DNA from: Escherichia coli | Lineage (GTDB): Bacteria > Pseudomonadota > Gammaproteobacteria > Enterobacterales > Enterobacteriaceae | Length of the DNA stretch: 64,000 bases | Assembly (NCBI RefSeq): GCF_041248615.1 | Contig: NZ_CP158426.1 | Direction: 5' to 3' (one strand) | Shown here: positions 6,619 through 60,527 of the stretch, piece by piece | How the letters are laid out: each line of letters starts with the position of its first letter | Numbering within the stretch: position 1 is the first letter of the stretch | Translations under genes and position numbers: made by a program | The notes under the pieces: generated by a model | Databases searched by the model: none | The model's input: the letters and a program-made list of their open reading frames with translations, nothing else | What the model was told of the DNA's origin: nothing

Positions 6619-8013
6619 TCAGAAGAAGTATTTAAAGCGAACGCGTGCGCCGTAACGGTCATCAGTATCATCACCGTGTTTTTTATCACCGTCGCTATCC
6701 AGAATGGAGTAATACGTCCCGAGGTAAATATTAAAGTTCTCCATATCCATCACATTAGCGAACTGATAAGACGCATGAATGGTGTGAATGGTGTACGTCC
6801 CTTCATCATCAATCCAGCAGTCGTTATCACAAACTACACCGCTGAATTCATCAATCTTATTGTGCGCGTAGATATAACCCAGCTCGAAACGTTTCCACAG
6901 CGCGTTAATCCCGGCAGTGAAATCTTTCTCATTATTAGCATCTAAATAGGCGGTATTAAGATTAACCACGACACCATTTTCCGGATCCGTTTTCAGGCCA
7001 TTCCAGGTCATGCTCATACCATAGCCGGTACGATCGGACTGATCGACAAAATTACCCTTGCTATCGGTATAACCATAAGCATTATTTACCACGTTCGCTT
7101 CCATCGCTGCGGAAACGGTGAATTCTTCCGTCGGCGACCAGGCAATTACCGGACGCAGATAAGCAACATTTTTCTGCTGCTCCATATCGCGTCCATGATA
7201 ATTACCGTCATTATATAAAGATGTTCCGTCTTCAAGTAACGTGTTTAATTCAAAATACCAGTTATCAAGTTGTTTGCTGACGAGGAAATTACCGCCAGCG
7301 TTAGAGCGCCCGCGGCCCTCTTTCATCATATAGATATAACCGCTGCCATCGTCATAAAGATCGTTCGCAGTATTACCGGAATGTTCAACAAAGGTATCCT
7401 GATTCAGCGGGAACATATCATAGGCTTCGAAACGACCGACTTTGACCTTCCAGTCATTCTCTTTGCCAAAGAAGAATACCGCATCATCGATATTTACTGA
7501 ACCGTGCATGTCCCCCAGCGGTTGTGCGGAGAACCCGGCGAAATAACCATTATCCAGTTTTCGCATACCATCAAAACCTAACAGAATACGACCATTGAGA
7601 TTCCACTGTTCATTAGTGGGATCGCTATTCACATCAGCGTTGGTCATTGCCAGCAAGCCATGATTACTTTCCGCATCCATATTAAATTCTACGTCGCCGT
7701 AGATTTTTAAATCGCCATAACCTGAGAGCAAAAGATTAGGTGAGGTGGCATTTTTCTTTGCAGATTCCGCCGTTGCCTGTCCATTTACCGGCGTATTGCC
7801 CTGAGCGGCCTTAATTTCGCGGATCTCAGCGGCTTGTTGTGTCTGCAACTGTTTAACCTGGCTCTCTGCTTTTGCCGCCCGCATTTCTGCCGCTTCCAGG
7901 CGTTCTTCCAGCAATGCCATGCGTTGTTCCAGCGTTAAATGCTGTGTTTTTGCCATACCGGTACTACATGCCAATAATAAACCGATGGCTAAAGATAATG
8001 TCGATTTTTTCAT
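6619..8013 (-). CDS. Outer-membrane carbohydrate-selective porin (OprB-like), with N-terminal coiled-coil region
   Basis: 464 aa; signal peptide MKKSTLSLAIGLLLACSTGMA; heptad-like charged stretch (LEQRMALLEERLEAAEMRAAKAESQVKQLQTQQAAEIREIKAAQ) reminiscent of the ScrY N-terminal extension; aromatic/Gly/Asn/Asp-rich beta-barrel body ending in the C-terminal Phe signature ...RFKYFF. Family call is from pattern only. Occupies the position where K-12 has the frv operon (from memory). Confidence 0.7.
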   Translation of the reverse strand: MKKSTLSLAIGLLLACSTGMAKTQHLTLEQRMALLEERLEAAEMRAAKAESQVKQLQTQQAAEIREIKAAQGNTPVNGQATAESAKKNATSPNLLLSGYGDLKIYGDVEFNMDAESNHGLLAMTNADVNSDPTNEQWNLNGRILLGFDGMRKLDNGYFAGFSAQPLGDMHGSVNIDDAVFFFGKENDWKVKVGRFEAYDMFPLNQDTFVEHSGNTANDLYDDGSGYIYMMKEGRGRSNAGGNFLVSKQLDNWYFELNTLLEDGTSLYNDGNYHGRDMEQQKNVAYLRPVIAWSPTEEFTVSAAMEANVVNNAYGYTDSKGNFVDQSDRTGYGMSMTWNGLKTDPENGVVVNLNTAYLDANNEKDFTAGINALWKRFELGYIYAHNKIDEFSGVVCDNDCWIDDEGTYTIHTIHASYQFANVMDMENFNIYLGTYYSILDSDGDKKHGDDTDDRYGARVRFKYFF

Positions 8014-8366
8014 TATTTACGTTCCCTGAAATAAAGGAGGCCCTACGCTTTCCAAAAGGAATACGTATATAGAGAAATATAAAGTGTGCACTTTCGAATT
8101 TTTAATCCAACTTCAGCAGGCCGATGGATAGTATCCCGCCGCATAATATGAGTAAATCCGCTGATTTCCTGGAACGTGAGGAATATAACAATAGTGCCGT
8201 TTTTAACCAAATATCGTAAAAAATATTAGATATAATTCACGCTGACTCATAAGCCACAAATATAAATAACGCTTAAACAAATTATCTGAGACATTTAAAC
8301 ATTCACAACATCATTAAATAATGATACTTTATTCACAAAATTTATCCTTCACTCTGCTTTATATTG

Positions 8367-9095
8367 TCACGACTTCGTGACATATCCGCGCTCATCACAA
8401 ACCCGCCCCGCGATTACAATTGACTGAAATATTTCATCGACCATTTCGTTGTACTCGCGTAACGCTCGCGGAAATGAGTCGTCGACCATCCAGCTTGTGT
8501 TTGCATCCTGAAGTTGCTCTTTATCCCAGTCAGAGTACGGAACTTTATCTCTGACGCGGCGAACATATTTTTTAGCCTCGAGTTGATACTGGTCTGCCGA
8601 ATTAATGAACGAGAAATTCATACCGCCTTTATCCGCTTCTTTGGCCTGCGCCACCAGCGTTTCCAGTTCAGAGACTTTCTTCATTGCCGCATCAACATCA
8701 AACTTCTCTTGCGATATCAGGTTATTAATTTGTTTCGCTGAAATCATGACTGCCAGAGAATAGTAGTGGAATGTTTTCCCTTCTCTTTCTTCAATATTTT
8801 TCAGTTCCGCAAGCTGACGCTTATCATTAATTTCCTGGATCGCCGCATGATAAGATTCGGCTACAGGTTCAAAGGCGTCCAGATTTTTTAAGAATGTCTG
8901 GTGCAGCGTTTTCCCTTTCGCAAACGCATCGTCTTTATAATTTTCCTGGGTGTAATATTTATCCATTTCGTTAATGGTATTACCCAACGCCACGGCAGCA
9001 TCAATATAACTCACCGCCACGCCATCAATAGGTTGCAGCGCAGGCGTTAACGCTACTACACGCGTTTTGTTTATAAATAAAATAATAAAATTCAC
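8367..9095 (-). CDS. yiiG: YiiG-like hypothetical protein (DUF3829-like), possibly truncated or divergent
   Basis: 242-aa ORF immediately downstream of fdhD, where K-12 has yiiG. Starts at a GTG abutting the fdhD terminator hairpin, with no signal peptide. I recall K-12 YiiG as longer, so this may be a fragment or a shorter allele. Confidence 0.5.
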   Translation of the reverse strand: MNFIILFINKTRVVALTPALQPIDGVAVSYIDAAVALGNTINEMDKYYTQENYKDDAFAKGKTLHQTFLKNLDAFEPVAESYHAAIQEINDKRQLAELKNIEEREGKTFHYYSLAVMISAKQINNLISQEKFDVDAAMKKVSELETLVAQAKEADKGGMNFSFINSADQYQLEAKKYVRRVRDKVPYSDWDKEQLQDANTSWMVDDSFPRALREYNEMVDEIFQSIVIAGRVCDERGYVTKS

Positions 9096-10171: not shown

Positions 10172-13100
10172 ATGCAGGTCAGCAGAAGGCAGTTCTTTAA
10201 GATCTGCGCTGGCGGTATGGCAGGCACCACGGCAGCGGCACTGGGTTTTGCACCCAGCGTAGCACTCGCGGAAACCCGGCAGTATAAACTGCTGCGCACC
10301 CGCGAAACCCGTAATACCTGCACCTATTGTTCCGTAGGCTGTGGGCTGTTGATGTACAGCCTCGGTGACGGAGCAAAAAACGCCAAAGCATCTATCTTCC
10401 ATATCGAAGGCGATCCGGATCACCCGGTCAACCGCGGTGCACTTTGTCCGAAAGGCGCTGGCCTGGTGGATTTCATCCACTCCGAAAGCCGTCTGAAGTT
10501 TCCGGAATACCGTGCGCCAGGTTCTGATAAATGGCAGCAAATCAGTTGGGAAGAGGCGTTTGATCGCATCGCCAAACTGATGAAAGAAGACCGCGATGCT
10601 AACTACATTGCGCAAAACGCCGAAGGCGTGACTGTTAACCGCTGGCTCTCCACCGGGATGCTGTGTGCTTCCGCGTCGAGTAACGAAACCGGCTATTTAA
10701 CGCAAAAATTCTCCCGCGCGCTGGGTATGCTCGCGGTCGACAACCAGGCGCGTGTCTGACACGGACCAACGGTAGCAAGTCTTGCTCCAACATTTGGTCG
10801 CGGTGCGATGACCAACCACTGGGTCGACATCAAGAACGCCAACCTCGTCGTGGTGATGGGCGGTAACGCCGCTGAAGCTCACCCGGTCGGGTTCCGCTGG
10901 GCGATGGAAGCCAAAATTCACAACGGCGCGAAGCTGATTGTGATCGATCCTCGCTTTACGCGTACGGCGGCGGTGGCTGACTACTATGCCCCTATTCGTT
11001 CCGGTACTGACATTGCTTTCCTGTCAGGCGTATTGCTGTACCTGCTGAACAATGAAAAATTCAACCGCGAATACACCGAAGCCTATACCAACGCCAGCCT
11101 TATCGTGCGTGAGGATTACGGCTTTGAAGATGGCCTGTTCACCGGCTACGACGCGGAAAAACGCAAGTACGATAAATCCTCCTGGACTTACGAACTGGAC
11201 GAAAACGGCTTCGCCAAACGCGATACCACGCTGCAACATCCGCGCTGCGTGTGGAACTTGCTGAAACAGCACGTTTCCCGCTACACGCCAGATGTGGTTG
11301 AAAACATCTGTGGTACGCCAAAAGACGCGTTCCTGAAAGTCTGCGAATACATCGCCGAAACCAGTGCTCACGATAAAACTGCCTCGTTCCTGTATGCCCT
11401 CGGCTGGACGCAACACTCTGTTGGTGCGCAAAACATTCGTACGATGGCGATGATCCAGCTGCTGCTCGGCAATATGGGGATGGCAGGCGGCGGCGTTAAC
11501 GCCCTGCGCGGTCACTCCAATATTCAGGGGCTGACGGACCTGGGGCTGCTGTCGCAGAGCCTGCCGGGTTACATGACGTTGCCGAGCGAGAAGCAGACCG
11601 ATCTGCAAACCTACCTTACAGCCAACACGCCAAAACCGCTGCTGGAAGGTCAGGTAAACTACTGGGGCAACTACCCGAAATTCTTCGTCTCCATGATGAA
11701 GGCCTTCTTTGGTGATAAAGCGACGGCGGAAAATAGCTGGGGCTTTGACTGGTTGCCGAAGTGGGATAAAGGCTACGACGTCCTGCAATACTTCGAGATG
11801 ATGAAAGAAGGCAAGGTCAATGGCTATATCTGCCAGGGCTTTAACCCTGTTGCCTCATTCCCGAACAAAAACAAAGTGATCGGTTGTCTGTCGAAACTGA
11901 AGTTCCTCGTCACCATCGACCCGCTGAACACTGAAACCTCTAACTTCTGGCAGAACCACGGTGAGCTGAACGAAGTTGACTCGTCGAAGATCCAGACCGA
12001 AGTGTTCCGTCTGCCATCGACCTGCTTCGCGGAAGAGAACGGTTCTATCGTTAACTCCGGTCGCTGGTTGCAGTGGCACTGGAAAGGTGCGGACGCCCCG
12101 GGGATTGCGCTGACTGATGGCGAGATCCTCTCCGGTATCTTCCTGCGCTTGCGCAAGATGTATGCCGAACAGGGTGGCGCGAACCCGGACCAGGTGCTGA
12201 ACATGACCTGGAACTACGCCATCCCGCATGAGCCGAAGTCGGAAGAAGTGGCGATGGAGAGCAACGGTAAGGCGCTGGCCGATATTACCGATCCGGCAAC
12301 CGGGGCGGTTATCGTCAAGAAAGGCCAACAACTTAGCTCGTTCGCCCAACTGCGCGATGACGGTACCACCTCCTGTGGCTGCTGGATTTTCGCCGGTAGC
12401 TGGACGCCAGAGGGCAACCAGATGGCACGCCGTGATAACGCCGATCCGTCTGGCCTCGGTAACACGCTGGGCTGGGCATGGGCATGGCCGCTTAACCGCC
12501 GCATTCTGTATAACCGCGCCTCCGCAGATCCGCAGGGTAACCCGTGGGATCCGAAGCGTCAGTTGCTGAAATGGGACGGCACCAAATGGACCGGCTGGGA
12601 TATTCCGGACTACAGCGCAGCACCTCCGGGCAGTGGCGTCGGGCCGTTTATCATGCAGCAGGAAGGCATGGGACGTCTGTTTGCCCTTGATAAGATGGCG
12701 GAAGGTCCGTTCCCGGAACACTACGAGCCGTTTGAAACGCCGCTGGGAACTAACCCGCTGCATCCAAACGTTATCTCGAACCCGGCTGCGCGTATCTTTA
12801 AAGACGACGCCGAAGCGTTGGGTAAAGCCGATAAGTTCCCGTATGTCGGAACCACCTATCGTCTGACCGAGCACTTCCACTACTGGACCAAACACGCGCT
12901 GTTGAACGCGATTTTGCAACCAGAGCAGTTTGTGGAAATCGGGGAGTCGCTGGCGAATAAACTTGGCATTGCCCAGGGCGATACCGTGAAAGTCTCCTCC
13001 AACCGTGGCTATATCAAAGCCAAAGCGGTGGTGACCAAACGTATTCGCACGCTGAAAGCGAACGGCAAAGATATCGATACCATCGGTATTCCGATTCACT

Positions 13101-13222
13101 GGGGCTATGAAGGCGTAGCTAAAAAAGGCTTTATTGCCAATACGTTAACGCCATTCGTTGGTGATGCGAACACGCAGACGCCGGAGTTTAAGTCCTTCCT
13201 TGTGAATGTGGAAAAGGTGTAA
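10172..13222 (+). CDS. fdoG: Formate dehydrogenase-O major (alpha) subunit, selenocysteine-containing
   Basis: Track ORFs 10172..10759 and 10808..13222 are in the same frame, separated by one in-frame TGA at 10757-10759 (context ...ARV-TGA-HGPT...). Twin-arginine signal MQVSRRQFFK; Cys cluster CTYCSVGCG; molybdopterin oxidoreductase body. Total 1016 codons. Confidence 0.93.
10757..10800 (+). other. Selenocysteine UGA codon and downstream SECIS stem-loop in fdoG
   Basis: In-frame TGA followed by cacggaccaacggtagcaagtcttgctccaacatttggtcg, which can fold into a hairpin directly 3' of the UGA as expected for a bacterial SECIS. Confidence 0.75.
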
Positions 13223-39676: not shown

Positions 39677-39845
39677 TGTTTAATCCTTTTGGTTTAAACC
39701 AGATGAAGCATCTTACGCTTACGCCAAAAAAGAAAGCAATTAACGGTGTATGACTTTGCAGATAATTGTGACAAAGCTCTCTATTGACGTAATCACAGAC
39801 TTATAAGGGAGATACTCGCATTGGTGTGCGCTCACGACAGGTAAA

Positions 39846-39878
39846 AAAAAACCTGCCAGCGATGGCAGGTTTTTTATA
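39846..39878 (-). terminator. Rho-independent terminator downstream of typA (bidirectional hairpin)
   Basis: aaaaaaaaacctgccagcgatggcaggttttttat: GC stem flanked by A-run and T-run, 15 bp past the typA stop. Confidence 0.75.
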
Positions 39879-39892
39879 ACTAAAAAACGAAA

Positions 39893-41716
39893 TTAATCGT
39901 CTTTCGGTGCGCGGTTGGCGCGACGACGATCGTTTTCCGTCAGGTGACGTTTACGAATACGGATAGAGGTCGGAGTCACTTCTACCAGTTCGTCATCATC
40001 GATGAACTCCAGAGCTTGTTCCAGAGTCATGCGGATAGGCGGAACCAGAACAACGGCTTCGTCAGTACCGGAAGCACGCATGTTGGTCAGTTTCTTACCG
40101 GTCAGGCAGTTTACAGTCAGGTCGTTAGAGCGGCTATGAATACCGATAATCTGACCTTCGTAAACTTCTGCACCGTGACCGAGGAACAGCTTACCGCGAT
40201 CCTGCAGACCGAACAGCGCGAACGCTACCGCTTTACCCTGACCGTTAGAGATCAGTACGCCGTTCTGACGCTGACCCACTTCACCCGGACGTACGTCGTC
40301 GTAGTGGCTGAAGGTGGAGTACAGCAGACCCGTACCAGAAGTCATGGTCATGAACTCAGAACGGAAGCCAATCAGACCACGGCTTGGGATCACGTAGTCG
40401 AGACGTACGCGGCCTTTACCGTCTGGATTCATGTTTTTCAGGTCGCCTTTACGTTCGCCCAGCGCCTGCATCACAGAACCCTGATGCTGTTCTTCAACGT
40501 CCAGCGTCACGTTTTCATACGGCTCTTGTTTACGACCGTCGATTTCACGGAAGATTACTTTCGGACGGGATACCGCCAGTTCGAAACCTTCACGACGCAT
40601 GTTTTCGATAAGAACAGACAGGTGCAGTTCGCCACGACCAGAAACGCGGAACGCATCGGCGTCTTCGGTTTCTTCTACGCGCAGCGCAACGTTGTGTACC
40701 AGTTCTTTGTTCAGACGATCCAGGATCTGACGAGACGTTACGAACTTACCTTCTTTACCGCAGAACGGCGAGGTGTTAACGCAAAAGAACATAGAAACGG
40801 TCGGCTCATCAACGGAGAGTGCCGGCAGCGCTTCAACGTTTTGCGTGTCGCAAACGGTGTCAGAAATGTTCAGTTCGCCCAGGCCCGTGATCGCCACGAT
40901 ATCGCCAGCTTCCGCCAGATCGGTTTCAATACGTTCCAGACCGAGGTGGCCCAGCACTTTACCGACTTTCGCGTTACGGGTTTTGCCTTCGCTATCGATG
41001 ATAGTGACCTGCTGGTTCGGCTTCACTTTACCGCGCTTGATGCGGCCAATGCCGATAACGCCAACATAGCTGTTGTAATCGAGCTGAGAAATCTGCATCT
41101 GGAACGGACCGTCAAGGTCAACGTCCGGCGCAGGAACGTGGTCAACAATCGCCTGATACAGCGGGGTCATGTCTTCCGCCATATCTTCGTGGTCCAGACC
41201 CGCGATACCGTTCAGCGCAGAAGCGTAAACGATCGGGAAGTCCAGCTGCTCGTCGGTCGCGTCGAGGTTAACGAACAGATCGAATACCTGATCCACAACC
41301 CAATCAGGACGCGCGCCAGGGCGGTCAACTTTGTTGATAACAACAATCGGCTTCAGGCCGTAAGCAAACGCTTTTTTGGTTACGAAGCGCGTTTGCGGCA
41401 TCGGGCCGTCAAATGCGTCAACCACCAGCAGCACTGAGTCTACCATGGACATTACACGTTCAACTTCACCACCGAAGTCGGCGTGCCCCGGGGTATCAAC
41501 GATGTTGATACGGTAATCATTCCATTTGATAGCGGTGTTTTTCGCGAGGATGGTAATCCCACGCTCTTTCTCCAAATCGTTGGAGTCCATCACGCGCTCT
41601 TGGGTTTCGGCACGAGAGTCGAACGTACCGGATTGTTGGAGCAGCTTGTCTACCAGGGTGGTTTTACCATGGTCTACGTGCGCGATGATGGCGATATTAC
41701 GCAATTTTTCGATCAC
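39893..41716 (-). CDS. typA: Ribosome-associated translational GTPase TypA/BipA
   Basis: 607 aa [26 protein letters not shown]..., G-motifs AHVDHGKTT / DTPGHADF / NKVD; divergent from glnA. Confidence 0.95.
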
Positions 41717-41864
41717 AACTTTGCCTCAGGCATTAGAAATAGCGCGTTATTGTACACGGATTAATCGCACTACAAAACAGGATCACAAACATCCTCCGCA
41801 AACAAGTATTGCAGAGTCCCTTTGTGATCGCTTTCACGGAGCATAAAAAGGGTTATCCAAAGGT

Positions 41865-42010
41865 CATTGCACCAATATGGTGCTTAATGTTTCCATTGAA
41901 GCACTATATTGGTGCAACATTCACATCATGGTGCAGCCCTTTTGCACGATGTTAAGCATGATAACGCCTTTTAGGGGCAATTTAAAAGTTGGCACAGTTT
42001 TCGCTTTATC
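41865..42010 (+). promoter_or_regulatory. glnA control region: NtrC binding sites and sigma-54 promoter glnAp2
   Basis: Dyad sites tgcaccaatatggtgc (about 41868-41883) and gcactatattggtgca (about 41901-41916); sigma-54 -24/-12 element TTGGCACagtttTCGCT at about 41989-42005, about 85 bp upstream of the glnA ATG. Confidence 0.8.
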
Positions 42011-48625: not shown

Positions 48626-48691
48626 AATGGTTCGTCTTTTAGCCGTTTTATTCAGTATAGATTTGCGGCGGAATCTAACAGAAAGCAAGCA

Positions 48692-48936
48692 AAGAAAAAA
48701 GGCGACAGATTACTCTGTCGCCTTTTTTCCTGACTCATAACCCTTAACGGGTCTTACAATCCTTGCAGGCCGCCAACACACCCTGTTTTTCCATTAGCCG
48801 GAACAATCCGTGTTGATTCCATTTCCGTTTAATTACGTCTCCGGACGTTTGTCTTCCTGACAATCCTCTGTCTTCGCCTCCTGGCGCTCCTGACCCTCAT
48901 CCTGAGTCATTGTTCCTGTTAGCGTCCTCGCTCTAT
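48692..48936 (-). ncRNA. csrC: CsrC small RNA (CsrA-sequestering)
   Basis: Minus-strand sequence begins ATAGAGCGAGGACGCTAACAGGAACAATGACTCAGGATGAGGGTCAGGAGCG..., carries many AGGA/GGA motifs, and ends in the hairpin GGCGACAGAGTAATCTGTCGCC plus T-run; matches the CsrC sequence as I remember it; located between yihI and engB. Confidence 0.85.
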
Positions 48937-49206: not shown

Positions 49207-49839
49207 TTGACTAATTTGAATTATCAACAGACGCATTTTGTGATGAGTGCGCCTGATATTCGCCACCTACCTTCCGATACCGGAATTGAAGTGGCTTTTG
49301 CAGGCCGTTCCAACGCAGGTAAATCCAGCGCGCTGAACACGCTGACTAACCAGAAAAGCCTGGCGCGGACCTCAAAAACCCCAGGGCGCACCCAGCTTAT
49401 CAACCTGTTTGAAGTGGCTGACGGCAAGCGTCTGGTTGACCTGCCCGGCTATGGCTACGCGGAAGTCCCGGAAGAGATGAAGCGCAAATGGCAACGCGCG
49501 CTCGGCGAATACCTCGAAAAACGTCAGAGCCTGCAAGGTCTGGTGGTGCTAATGGATATTCGCCATCCGCTGAAAGATTTGGATCAGCAGATGATTGAGT
49601 GGGCGGTAGACAGCAATATCGCCGTGCTGGTGCTGCTGACCAAAGCGGACAAACTGGCAAGCGGCGCACGTAAAGCGCAATTGAATATGGTGCGTGAAGC
49701 GGTGCTGGCGTTTAACGGTGATGTGCAGGTTGAAACGTTCTCCTCACTGAAGAAACAAGGCGTGGACAAGCTGCGGCAGAAACTGGATACCTGGTTTAGC
49801 GAGATGCAGCCTGTAGAAGAAACGCAGGACGGCGAATAA
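49207..49839 (+). CDS. engB: Ribosome-biogenesis GTPase EngB (YihA)
   Basis: 210 aa, TTG start, ...[17 protein letters not shown]... (G1), DLPGYGY (G3), TKADK (G4). Confidence 0.92.
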
Positions 49840-49854
49840 TTTTCTTGCCTTAAT

Positions 49855-49955
49855 GCTTGTGCCGGATGTGGCGTATCCGGCCCGTAAATTCAATAGATTA
49901 CACTTCTACCGTTGGCCTGATAAACAGGGCGCATCAGGCATTACGGATCTTTTCT
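49855..49955. repeat. REP elements between engB and spf
   Basis: gccggatgtggcgtatccggcc and gcctgataaacagggcgcatcaggc palindromic units. Confidence 0.65.
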
Positions 49956-49961
49956 TTCGCC

Positions 49962-50073
49962 CAATAAAAAACGCCCCAGTCATTACTGACTGGGGCGGCT
50001 AAAATATTCAGCCAAATCCGATTACGTGAAGTAAAAGGTCTGAAAGATAGAACATCTTACCTCTGTACCCTAC
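49962..50073 (-). ncRNA. spf: Spot 42 small RNA
   Basis: Minus-strand sequence GTAGGGTACAGAGGTAAGATGTTCTATCTTTCAGACCTTTTACTTCACGTAATCGGATTTGGCTGAATATTTTAGCCGCCCCAGTCAGTAATGACTGGGGCGTTTTTTATTGG matches Spot 42 as I recall it, including the terminal hairpin and U-run; lies downstream of polA. Confidence 0.9.
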
Positions 50074-50220
50074 GCGACTAACTTTACTCTTTTTTGTTCA
50101 GTTCAGAAAGCATTTTTTGTAATTTTTTTTCAGTTGTTGCATAGGAATTTCTAATAGCCATCACAAAACGTGACAGCTTATGTTGCTTACTTACGAAAAA
50201 AGGGCATGTTCAGGCGAATC

Positions 50221-53007
50221 TTAGTGCGCCTGATCCCAGTTTTCGCCACTCCCCACTTCCACCAGCAACGGCACATCCAGACGGGTACAGTTTTCCATCA
50301 GTTGATGAATCTGCTTCGCGACGGCATCGACATCATCTTTATGAACTTCAAATACCAGTTCATCGTGTACCTGCATGATCATACGCACACGCGGTTGCTC
50401 AGCCTGTAGCCACGTATCAACGGCAATCATTGCCCGTTTGATAATGTCGGCGGCGGTTCCCTGCATTGGCGCGTTAATGGCTGCACGTTCAGCCGCTGCA
50501 CGACGAGCACCATTGCTGGATTTGATATCCGGCAGATACAGACGGCGTCCGTCCAGCGTTTCAACGTAGCCCTGCTCTTTCGCCTGAGCACGGGTGCGTT
50601 CCATATACTCCAGCACGCCAGGGTAGCGTTCGAAGTAAAGGTCCATGTACTTCTGCGCTTCTTTACGTGGAATGTTCAATTGCCGCGCCAGACCGAAAGC
50701 ACTCATGCCATAAATCAGACCAAAGTTGATCGCTTTCGCGCTACGGCGTTGCTCGCTGGTGACGGTTTCCAGTGGCAAACCAAACACTTCTGCCGCCGTT
50801 GCCCGGTGGATATCTTTTCCTTCCGCGAATGCGGTCAGCAAGCCTTTGTCACGCGAGAGATGCGCCATAATGCGCAGTTCAATCTGCGAGTAGTCCGCTG
50901 AGACAATCACATAATCCTCTGGCGCAATAAACGCCTGGCGGATACGACGACCTTCTTCGTTACGCACCGGAATGTTTTGCAGGTTAGGATCGGTTGACGA
51001 TAAACGTCCCGTTGCAGTTACTGCCTGGTGATAAGAGGTATGCACACGCCCGGTTTTCGGGTTGATCATCAGCGGCAGCTTGTCGGTGTAAGTCGATTTC
51101 AGCTTCGCCAGACCACGATACTCCAGAATCACTTTTGGCAACGGATAGTCCAGCGCCAGTTCTTCCAGTACCTCTTCCGACGTTGACGGCGCGCCACCTG
51201 GCGTTTTCTTCAGCGGTTTAATGCCCTGTTTTTCAAACAGAATGGTTTGTAACTGCTTGGTGGAAGAAAGGTTAAACTCCTCACCTGCAATTTCATGCGC
51301 TTTCTTTTCCAGCTCAGCCAGACGAAGAGTGAGCTCTTCAGAATGATTGTGCAGCACTTTCGGATCGATCTTCACACCGTTACGTTCAATGCGTGAAAGC
51401 ACCGGCACTAGCGGCATTTCGATATTCTCGAAGACGTTCAACGGCCCTTTGTGTTTTTGCAGATCCGGCCACATTTTCAGATGCAGCTGCAAGGTGACAT
51501 CTGCATCTTCGGCGGCGTAACGTCCGGCCTCTTCCAGGGCAATCTGGTTAAAGGTCAGTTGATTTTTACCTTTACCAGCAATCTCTTCAAAAGTGATGGT
51601 TTTGTGCTTCAACCAACGTTCCGCGAGGCTGTCCATATCGTGACGCCCGGCAACGCTATTGAGAATGTAGGACTCCAGCATGGTATCAAATGCAATCCCA
51701 CGCAGCTCAATGCCGTAATTCGCCAGAATACCGCGATCGTATTTCAGGTTTTGCCCAACCTTCAGCGCCTTTTCATCTTCCAGCAGCGGTTTTAGCAACT
51801 CGAGTGCACGCTCGCGAGAGATTTGATCGGGCGCATCAAGATAATCATGAGCAACCGGAATATATGCCGCTACGCCTGGCTCGATAGCAAAAGAAAGCCC
51901 GACCAGGTTAGCAGAGATGTTATCAAGGCTGTCGGTTTCGGTATCAAATGCAAATACCGGCGCTTTTTCCAGCTTCGCAATCCACGCTTTCAGTGTTTCT
52001 TCATCAAGGATGGTGACGTAGTTGTCATAAGAAATCACCGTTGCCGTCACCTCTGGCGCTTCGTCTGCAACACTGGTTTCCTGCGGCCTGGCTGCGGGTT
52101 TCGCCCCTTTAGCCTGTAACCATTTGCCCGCTTCGACATCAGCAGTCCAGCGTTTGAACTCATACTTTTTGAACAGCCCCAACAACTCTTCCGCCGCCGG
52201 TTGTTGCACTTCCAGTTGTTCACAGGTCAGCTCCAGTTCAACGTCGGTTTTAATCGTCGCCAGCTGGTATGAGAGATAAGCAACTTCTTTGTTTTGCTCG
52301 AGCTTCGCTGCCATTGTTTTCGCGCCACGGAAGCTCAACCCAGCAATTTTTTCTGGCTCGGCATATAGCGTATCCAGCCCGCCAAGACCTTGCAGCAATG
52401 CCTGCGCGGTTTTTTCACCGACGCCCGGTACGCCAGGGATGTTATCAGAGGAGTCACCCATCAGCGCCAGGAAGTCGATGATCAGTTCTGGCGGCACGCC
52501 GTACTTATTCACCACCTCTTCCGGGCCGAGGATGGTATTCGTCATGGTATTGATAAGCGTAATATTTGGCGTCACCAGCTGCGCCATATCTTTATCGCCA
52601 GTGCTGATCAGCACCGGACGCCCGGCTTTTTCGGCTTCCCGCGCCAGAGTACCGATAACGTCGTCCGCTTCTACGCCAGAAACCGCCAGCAGCGGCAGTC
52701 CCATCGCTTTAACCATCGCGTGTAAAGGTTCGATTTGTGCTCGCAGATCGTCCGGCATTGGCGGGCGATGTGATTTGTAATGTTCAAACAGTTCATCACG
52801 AAAGGTTTTTCCCTTGGCGTCAAATACCACCGCTGCATGCGTCGGTTTATATTGCATGATCAGACTGCGCAGCATGTTGAGGACACCATACATCGCACCG
52901 GTCGGCTCGCCTGCGCTGTTAGTCAGCGGGGGAAACGCGTGATATGCGCGATAAAGATAAGATGAACCATCTACAAGGATAAGTGGATTTTGGGGGATCT
53001 GAACCAT
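50221..53007 (-). CDS. polA: DNA polymerase I
   Basis: 928 aa [25 protein letters not shown]... (5'-3' exonuclease), 3'-5' exonuclease and polymerase domains ([23 protein letters not shown]). Confidence 0.97.
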
Positions 53008-59137: not shown

Positions 59138-59644
59138 GTGCAGTTTATGAAACATTCATTTGAAGTAAAACTTGCCGCTGTAAATCATTACCTGGCTGGT
59201 CAGGCAGGCATCATTTCTACGGCAAAACTCTTTCAACTTTCTCACACCAGCCTCTCACACTGGATTAATCTTTTTCTTCTTCACGGTCCTCGGGCACTGG
59301 ATTGCAGACACAAGCGTAGCTATTCTCCTGAAGATAAACTTTGCGTGGTTCTTTATGCTCTCGGGCATTCTGAGTCTCTACCCCGGGTAGCTGCCCGGTT
59401 TAACATTCCCAGCCACAACACGGTTAAAAACTGGATAAAAGGCTACCGCAAATCTGGTAATGAGGCCTTTATCAGGCGCAGGAAGGAGAAAAGCATGACC
59501 CGTTCTGATGATACCCATGAAAACGAGGCAAACATGACGCCGGAAGAGATGAAGAATGAGCTGCGTTATCTTCGCGCAGAAAATGCATATCTGAAAGCCA
59601 TGCAGGAGCATCTCCTGGAAAAAAAGCGCCAGGAGCTGGAGAAA

Positions 59645-59668
<24 letters not shown>
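59138..59668 (+). CDS. IS3-family transposase OrfA (HTH DNA-binding subunit)
   Basis: 176 aa ...MKHSFEVKLAAVNHYLAGQAGIISTAKLFQLSHTSLSHWINLF... with C-terminal leucine-zipper-like region; ends just after the A6 slippery run. Confidence 0.85.

Positions 59669-60527
<859 letters not shown>

Follow-up and report, generated by a model that had tools for sequence, protein, structure and literature searches.

The chromosomal spf gene for the small RNA Spot 42 downstream of polA in an Escherichia coli genome

The 64,000-nucleotide stretch of Escherichia coli DNA analysed here (contig NZ_CP158426.1, referred to as the window) carries on its minus strand, at 49965-50073, a sequence that is almost certainly the chromosomal spf gene, which lies 147 nt downstream of polA and has its own promoter for the 109-nt Spot 42 RNA. 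The original prediction, made from the letters alone, had placed Spot 42 on this strand downstream of polA, and named an Rfam/Infernal scan as the check and the absence of a hit as the contrary outcome. Scanning the whole window against Rfam 15 recovered Spot_42 (RF00021) far above its gathering score (122.8 bits compared to 80, E = 3.6e-24), which confirms the prediction. The single match (49965-50083, minus strand) takes in all 115 model positions (1-115) without truncation; its span is wider than the RNA because the Rfam model begins 10 nt upstream of the mature 5′ end. The mature RNA extends from a 5′ G at 50073 to a 3′ A at 49965, and the minus strand from 50073 to 49965 reads GUAGGGUACAGAGGUAAGAUGUUCUAUCUUUCAGACCUUUUACUUCACGUAAUCGGAUUUGGCUGAAUAUUUUAGCCGCCCCAGUCAGUAAUGACUGGGGCGUUUUUUA. 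All 109 nt are identical to spf (b3864) of K-12 MG1655 (109/109), and all RNA columns are invariant in a three-way alignment of the window, K-12 and strain 2009C-3133. The predicted span of 49962-50073 thus began exactly on the 5′ G but overshot the 3′ end of the 109-nt RNA by 3 nt; K-12 annotates spf at 111 nt, which would move the 3′ end to 49963. No open reading frame of at least 80 aa was found within 49840-50220, in line with the prediction that the gene is missing from the ORF track and consistent with an embedded ORF of only 15 codons.

The 109-nt RNA occurs at 99% identity or more, in one copy, in 5424 of 5426 complete E. coli genomes, and the 411 bases around spf likewise have one occurrence each in 5424 of the 5426. 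The spf region had no match in two genomes and lay on a plasmid-labelled record in two. Isolate NRZ14408 (NZ_LT599825.1) matches the window at 100% identity over 25 kb. Judged by its sequence, this copy of spf is wild type, an already known feature with nothing new in it.

The gene order polA-spf-yihA/engB, with csrC beyond yihA, is that of K-12 MG1655, which has the same neighbours. We recognised polA as a 928-codon ORF on the same strand as spf (50221-53007, minus), so that the Spot 42 RNA begins 147 nt past the polA stop codon, as the original prediction had it on the downstream side of this gene. The convergent gene yihA/engB occupies 49207-49839 on the plus strand. The 125-nt spacer between spf and the yihA/engB stop (49840-49964) contains two REP-like hairpins, at 49915-49939 and 49861-49881 (inverted repeats I2 and I3), and the motif GCCKGATGCG is found 21 times in the window compared to 11.1 expected. 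Neither a terminator scan nor a search for inverted repeats revealed a canonical terminator between the polA stop and spf. A 7-bp hairpin, TCAGGCG/CGCCTGA, lies over the polA stop and is enclosed by a CGAAAA/UUUUCG pairing (−20.7 kcal/mol, z = −2.75, for window positions 50170-50245, minus strand), with a U-run displaced by ~9 nt. Since this hairpin is not a canonical terminator, polA transcription may enter the spf promoter region.

The Spot 42 RNA folds at −40.6 kcal/mol (z = −5.08), and none of 200 dinucleotide shuffles folds as well. The fold comprises three hairpins (nt 1-48, 61-77 and 78-101), a 12-nt single-stranded linker (nt 49-60) and a U-tail, and agrees with the Rfam consensus structure except at two pairs of the model that involve bases before +1. 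Hairpin 1 (50026-50073, minus strand), a long imperfect stem-loop for which the minimum-free-energy fold equals the Rfam consensus, holds seed regions I and II as well as the ribosome-binding site and start codon of the peptide SpfP (see below). Hairpin 2 (49997-50013, minus strand), GGCUGAA-UAU-UUUAGCC, holds the SpfP stop codon. The Rho-independent terminator (49965-49997, minus strand), identified by the terminator scan and as inverted repeat I1, has a GC-rich stem of 10-11 bp, a GUAA loop and a U6 tail; its arms CGCCCCAGTCA and TGACTGGGGCG, at 49997-49987 and 49982-49972, are 100% complementary over 11 bp and separated by a 4-nt loop, followed by TTTTTT. The terminator hairpin and U-run of the original prediction are therefore present, but the first two bases (GC) of the arm it quoted, GCCGCCCC, are mostly part of the middle hairpin, in its 3′ arm. 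A terminator with a U-tail is the usual Hfq-binding 3′ end of a small RNA. The terminator U-tail and the U/A-rich linker are the Hfq-associated features of this RNA, from which Hfq binding would be predicted.

To collect orthologues, we scanned 298 Gb of sequence, with one genome per species, for the exact 20-mer at RNA nt 18-37. At least 120 loci with this 20-mer were found, distributed among Enterobacterales, Vibrionales, Aeromonadales and Shewanella-type Alteromonadales; for the 3′ ends, a U-rich stretch was accepted only with a hairpin before it. An exact match in a Muribaculaceae MAG (Bacteroidota, JAFLTQ010000010.1, 1010-1029) was rejected as a chance match, having no similarity outside the 20-mer and neither polA nor engB nearby; false positives are thus possible when 298 Gb are scanned with an exact 20-mer. 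Among the matches listed, 102 loci have polA upstream on the strand of spf and 103 have a convergent engB downstream; 11 loci with enough room, named Aeromonas species included, have no polA upstream. The Shewanella-type loci among all the matches listed (L004, L018, L037, L044, L049, L062, L069, L082, L100, L109, L111 and L112), which are named Shewanella or Parashewanella where a name is shown, retain the 5′ 38 nt and the terminator and differ in the central part, which is sometimes longer.

We scored 82 distinct orthologues among the matches listed, from the four gammaproteobacterial groups, on the E. coli minimum-free-energy structure. Standard pairs made up 97.3% of the pair cells compared to 36-51% when partners were slid by 1-3 columns, and none of 500 shuffles reached any of the observed structure measures. 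Compensatory changes affected 10 pairs, nine in the terminator and one in hairpin 2. In the terminator 9 of 10 pairs are compensatory and 99.4% of cells are paired; in hairpin 2, 87.8% of cells are paired and the closing pair changes from G-C to A-U in nine of the listed sequences. The three helices of hairpin 1 are paired in 98.7-99.8% of cells and nearly invariant, with no covariation, so that covariation is silent on this hairpin precisely because it does not vary. The invariance of the nt 18-37 columns arises by construction, as the 20-mer was the search pattern; nt 1-17, outside the pattern, are likewise nearly invariant among the listed orthologues, which fits several joint constraints (seed pairing, structure, ribosome-binding site and start codon). 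A structure computed with RNAalifold, which had a different and shorter 5′ hairpin and no hairpin 2, was set aside in favor of the E. coli/Rfam-type structure; we attribute this misprediction to the invariance of the 5′ 38 nt, and pairs were therefore counted on the E. coli minimum-free-energy structure.

Three exposed regions of Spot 42 are described as pairing with targets (review PMC12612679), and all three were located here and compared with the K-12 galT-galK junction. Seed region I (nt 1-8, GUAGGGUA, at 50066-50073, minus strand) pairs with galK +49 to +56 over 8 bp, one of them G.U. Seed region II (nt 27-36, UCUUUCAGAC, at 50038-50047, minus strand) forms 10 perfect Watson-Crick pairs with galK +5 to +14, in agreement with the register of PMC8577784, which places the end of region II two nucleotides past the galK start codon. 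Seed region III (nt 53-61, UCGGAUUUG, at 50013-50021, minus strand) forms 9 bp, two of them G.U, with gal mRNA −19 to −11; it is located in the single-stranded linker (nt 49-60), is unpaired in the fold, and its target partly covers the galK Shine-Dalgarno sequence. The pairings of regions I and III are also described in PMC8577784, and the three regions pair colinearly and antiparallel in the registers of that study. PMC8577784 attributes Rho-dependent termination to the pairing of region II and RNase E cleavage to that of region I. A GGA within seed region III is reported as a CsrA site (review PMC12612679). With G.U pairs allowed, we counted seven complementary stretches compared to 3.1 ± 1.9 in shuffles, of which 23 out of 500 also reached seven. 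The complementarity to galK is thus weakly better than in shuffles, and its worth lies in the reproduction of the published registers, not in the statistics. This count of contiguous stretches replaced a whole-RNA RNAduplex comparison with 200 nt of gal mRNA, which returned a meaningless global duplex (−65.3 compared to −51.6 ± 5.2 kcal/mol).

A generic sigma-70 promoter scan of 49600-50500 called no promoter because the −35 element is weak, and the promoter was placed instead by conservation anchored at +1. Its likely −10 hexamer, TAAAGT (50081-50086, minus strand; −13 to −8), is assigned from its position and conservation, being kept as TA(A/G/C)A(G/T)T across orders in the orthologues among the matches listed. 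A putative weak −35-like element, TTTCTG (50104-50109, minus strand), precedes it with a 17-bp spacer, and the TTT at −36 to −34, with a column conservation of at least 0.9, is the most conserved upstream triplet in those same listed orthologues. Further upstream lies an A-rich block, AAAAAAAATTACAAAAAA (50113-50130, minus strand; −57 to −40), in the position of an UP element; the A-rich stretch AAAAAAAATTACAAAAA is conserved in Enterobacterales, Vibrionales and Aeromonadales, among the matches listed, at a fixed distance from +1. This block is probably an UP element. A limited literature search found no discussion of an A-rich block upstream of spf. At −40 (50113) K-12 has G and the window has A, a difference that falls at the promoter-proximal end of the block.

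The predicted cAMP-CRP site, TTTTGTGATGGCTATTAGAAAT (50147-50168, minus strand), is centred at −84.5 and matches verbatim a 22-mer that PMC3295665, with reference to Polayes et al. 1988, reports as the CRP site of E. coli spf. This 22-mer has one exact match in the window, where none is expected by chance. Searching the whole window with the CRP consensus at two mismatches gave no enrichment (29 hits compared to 25.5 expected), and the spf site was therefore trusted only after it had been matched to the published 22-mer. Repression of spf by cAMP-CRP, and abundance of the RNA in glucose, are reported in PMC8916003 and PMC7591399; at −84.5, the site lies far upstream for simple occlusion.

Spot 42 also contains the reading frame of the 15-residue peptide SpfP (50008-50055, minus strand), consisting of 15 codons translating to MFYLSDLLLHVIGFG followed by UGA, with the AUG at nt 19-21 and the TGA at nt 64-66. 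The frame, ATG TTC ... GGC TGA, is intact, and a GAGG at nt 11-14 (50060-50063) lies 4 nt upstream of it. K-12 lists the gene as spfP (b4837), and NZ_CP013025 and NZ_LT599825 annotate its product as WP_071892919.1; the K-12 peptide (b4837, WP_071892919.1) has the same 15 residues and the same coding DNA, without any difference. SpfP is reported to be translated, more so at 42-45°C, and to bind CRP and block its activation of promoters such as galE P1 (PMC8916003). Of 113 orthologue loci among the matches listed, 98 keep the 15-codon frame intact. Nine DNA versions of it occur, and they differ only in codons 8-15, by three synonymous substitutions at third positions, five replacements of an amino acid and swaps between UGA and UAA stops. 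The frame is exactly 15 codons long in Enterobacterales, Vibrionales and Aeromonadales and lost in Shewanella-type RNAs. This pattern is suggestive of a peptide-level constraint beyond E. coli, although it reflects few independent events and is confounded by RNA-level constraint. The main text of the SpfP paper (PMC8916003) contained none of the conservation-related terms that we looked for. If the SpfP frame is under selection beyond E. coli, the function of the peptide would be old and not a peculiarity of E. coli. We consider it possible, if rather doubtful, that the SpfP frame has been selected well beyond E. coli and, at the same time, that the A-rich block is an UP element that sets a high output tuned by the A/G difference at −40.

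Each hallmark of spf and Spot 42 that lends itself to computation is present at this locus: the identity, structure, covariation, synteny, presence of the CRP site, intact ORF and galK complementarity all come from this analysis. Two other readings each have slight support and face strong contrary evidence. Spot 42 could be a processed 3′ UTR or a read-through product of polA instead of an independent gene, given that polA lies on the same strand merely 147 nt upstream and that the gap offers, in place of a canonical terminator, only the 7-bp hairpin over the stop with its displaced U-run. Such an origin is difficult to reconcile with the −10 hexamer, the TTT and the A-rich block, all of which are conserved at a fixed distance from +1 in several orders, and with the 11 loci among the matches listed, named Aeromonas included, in which the RNA persists in the absence of an upstream polA. 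It also conflicts with the literature, in which a CRP-repressed spf promoter and spf-lacZ transcriptional fusions are described (PMC8916003, PMC7591399 and PMC3295665), and we therefore hold it to be extremely improbable.

The locus could also be essentially a small-protein gene, spfP, to which the RNA structure and base-pairing would be incidental. The intact ORF with its GAGG site, its retention in 98 of the 113 listed loci, the confinement of three variable sites to synonymous third positions, the preservation of the stop as UGA or UAA, and the reported translation and activity of SpfP (PMC8916003) would all be expected of such a gene. Yet near-invariance extends to nt 1-17, a segment covered neither by the ORF nor by the search pattern, the covariation of the terminator helix is that of an RNA structure, and Shewanella-type RNAs keep the 5′ half and the terminator but not the frame and length of the ORF. 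Base-pairing mutants moreover have defined phenotypes (PMC8577784), leaving hardly any probability for a locus that serves the peptide alone, and the published recoded and STOP derivatives of spf indicate that both activities exist. An spf gene with its own promoter, producing a base-pairing RNA that also encodes a peptide, is thus the reading we retain, with no observation against it.

As the Spot 42 RNA is identical to that of K-12, experiments carried out in K-12 apply to it directly; CRP repression, Hfq dependence, target regulation, and the translation and activity of SpfP, established in the literature for that identical sequence, would thus be expected here. Under glucose scarcity, cAMP-CRP would occupy the upstream site and repress spf, and in glucose Spot 42 would be abundant. 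With Hfq, nt 1-8, 27-36 and 53-61 would then pair with the translation-initiation regions of mRNAs for the uptake and catabolism of secondary carbon sources, the classic target being galK within galETKM, and this pairing would block translation and trigger Rho termination or RNase E cleavage. Since the target genes need CRP for their activation, the circuit would form a coherent feed-forward loop and sharpen catabolite repression. Spot 42 would also act as a tiny mRNA, whose product SpfP, by binding CRP and blocking the activation of some promoters, mainly at higher temperature, would reinforce the same loop.

The relevance of spf in this genome is a point of annotation, the gene itself being a biologically well-understood node of catabolite repression. 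Most of the E. coli RefSeq records among the matches listed lack any feature under Spot 42 RNA, and NZ_LT599825.1, the 100% match, names the product of the SpfP CDS 'spot 42 RNA, inhibition of DNA synthesis' and carries no spf ncRNA feature. The product name of the SpfP CDS in some E. coli records is misleading. As automated annotations often omit the spf ncRNA, a scan that recovers Spot 42 from raw sequence behaves correctly. Just past yihA, the CsrC small RNA (RF00084, 277.9 bits) lies at 48683-48936 on the minus strand; NZ_CP013025 and NZ_LT599825 place over it a pseudo-CDS at 48744-48910, labelled 'hypothetical protein, frameshifted; internal stop' and apparently a spurious call on a small RNA gene. 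Up-regulation of CsrC by Spot 42 has been reported in Salmonella (PMC7591399), and the two small RNA genes, ~1 kb apart, are therefore functionally linked.

Other features were observed elsewhere in the window. Rfam matches to ES222 (133 bits; 41798-41905, minus strand), in the leader upstream of the typA start (41716), and to STnc370 (54.9 bits, just at the gathering score of 54; 39840-39908, minus strand), overlapping the typA stop (39893), appear to derive from the UTRs of typA/bipA. Between mobB and the 5S rRNA gene that ends an rrn operon lies a transposase of IS1397 (IS3 family) with a programmed frameshift (59147-60495, plus strand); K-12 is not known to have an insertion sequence in this interval. 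The stretch between yiiE and fabY (16975-21334) resembles a strain-variable islet. It contains small hypotheticals, an alpha/beta hydrolase, a transposase, a truncated gene, and a NadS-family gene paired with a 103-aa hypothetical, which together may form a toxin-antitoxin-like pair. After rhaM, a carbohydrate porin gene and a truncated yiiG occupy 6619-9056, where K-12 presumably has the frv operon, and this segment looks like a replacement relative to K-12. Finally, the gene at 10172-13222 (plus strand) beside fdoH/fdoI, which RefSeq labels 'fdnG, formate dehydrogenase-N subunit alpha', is fdoG by position and contains a SECIS_3 element (84.3 bits, 10754-10812) for its selenocysteine codon.

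Compared to spf of K-12 MG1655, the locus has the same RNA, neighbours, CRP site, terminator and spfP, and differs in the flanks only. Besides the change at −40, the window has one extra C at ~50204, just after the polA stop, and three substitutions at ~49903-49928 in the downstream spacer, two of which fall in the loop of the first REP-like hairpin; these flank variants recur in at least 12 further E. coli genomes, in which the 411-bp region is 100% identical. The Spot 42 RNAs of Vibrionaceae, Aeromonas and Shewanella have essentially the 5′ 38 nt of E. coli, the three-part architecture and the covarying terminator and, among the matches listed, mostly keep the polA-spf-engB order, but their second half has diverged and their lengths range from 102 to 117 nt. 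Unlike in E. coli, the Aeromonas loci have no polA upstream, and Shewanella-type RNAs carry an additional base in the bulge of hairpin 1 and lack a conserved 15-codon ORF. Beyond these relatives, CyaR and other CRP-controlled Hfq small RNAs share with Spot 42 the control by cAMP-CRP and a role in the choice of carbon source, and the dual-function RNAs SgrS/SgrT, AzuCR and VcdRP follow the same logic, some of them also encoding a small protein (PMC12612679). CyaR, SgrS/SgrT, AzuCR and VcdRP are unrelated to Spot 42 in sequence, and CRP activates CyaR but represses Spot 42 (PMC7591399).
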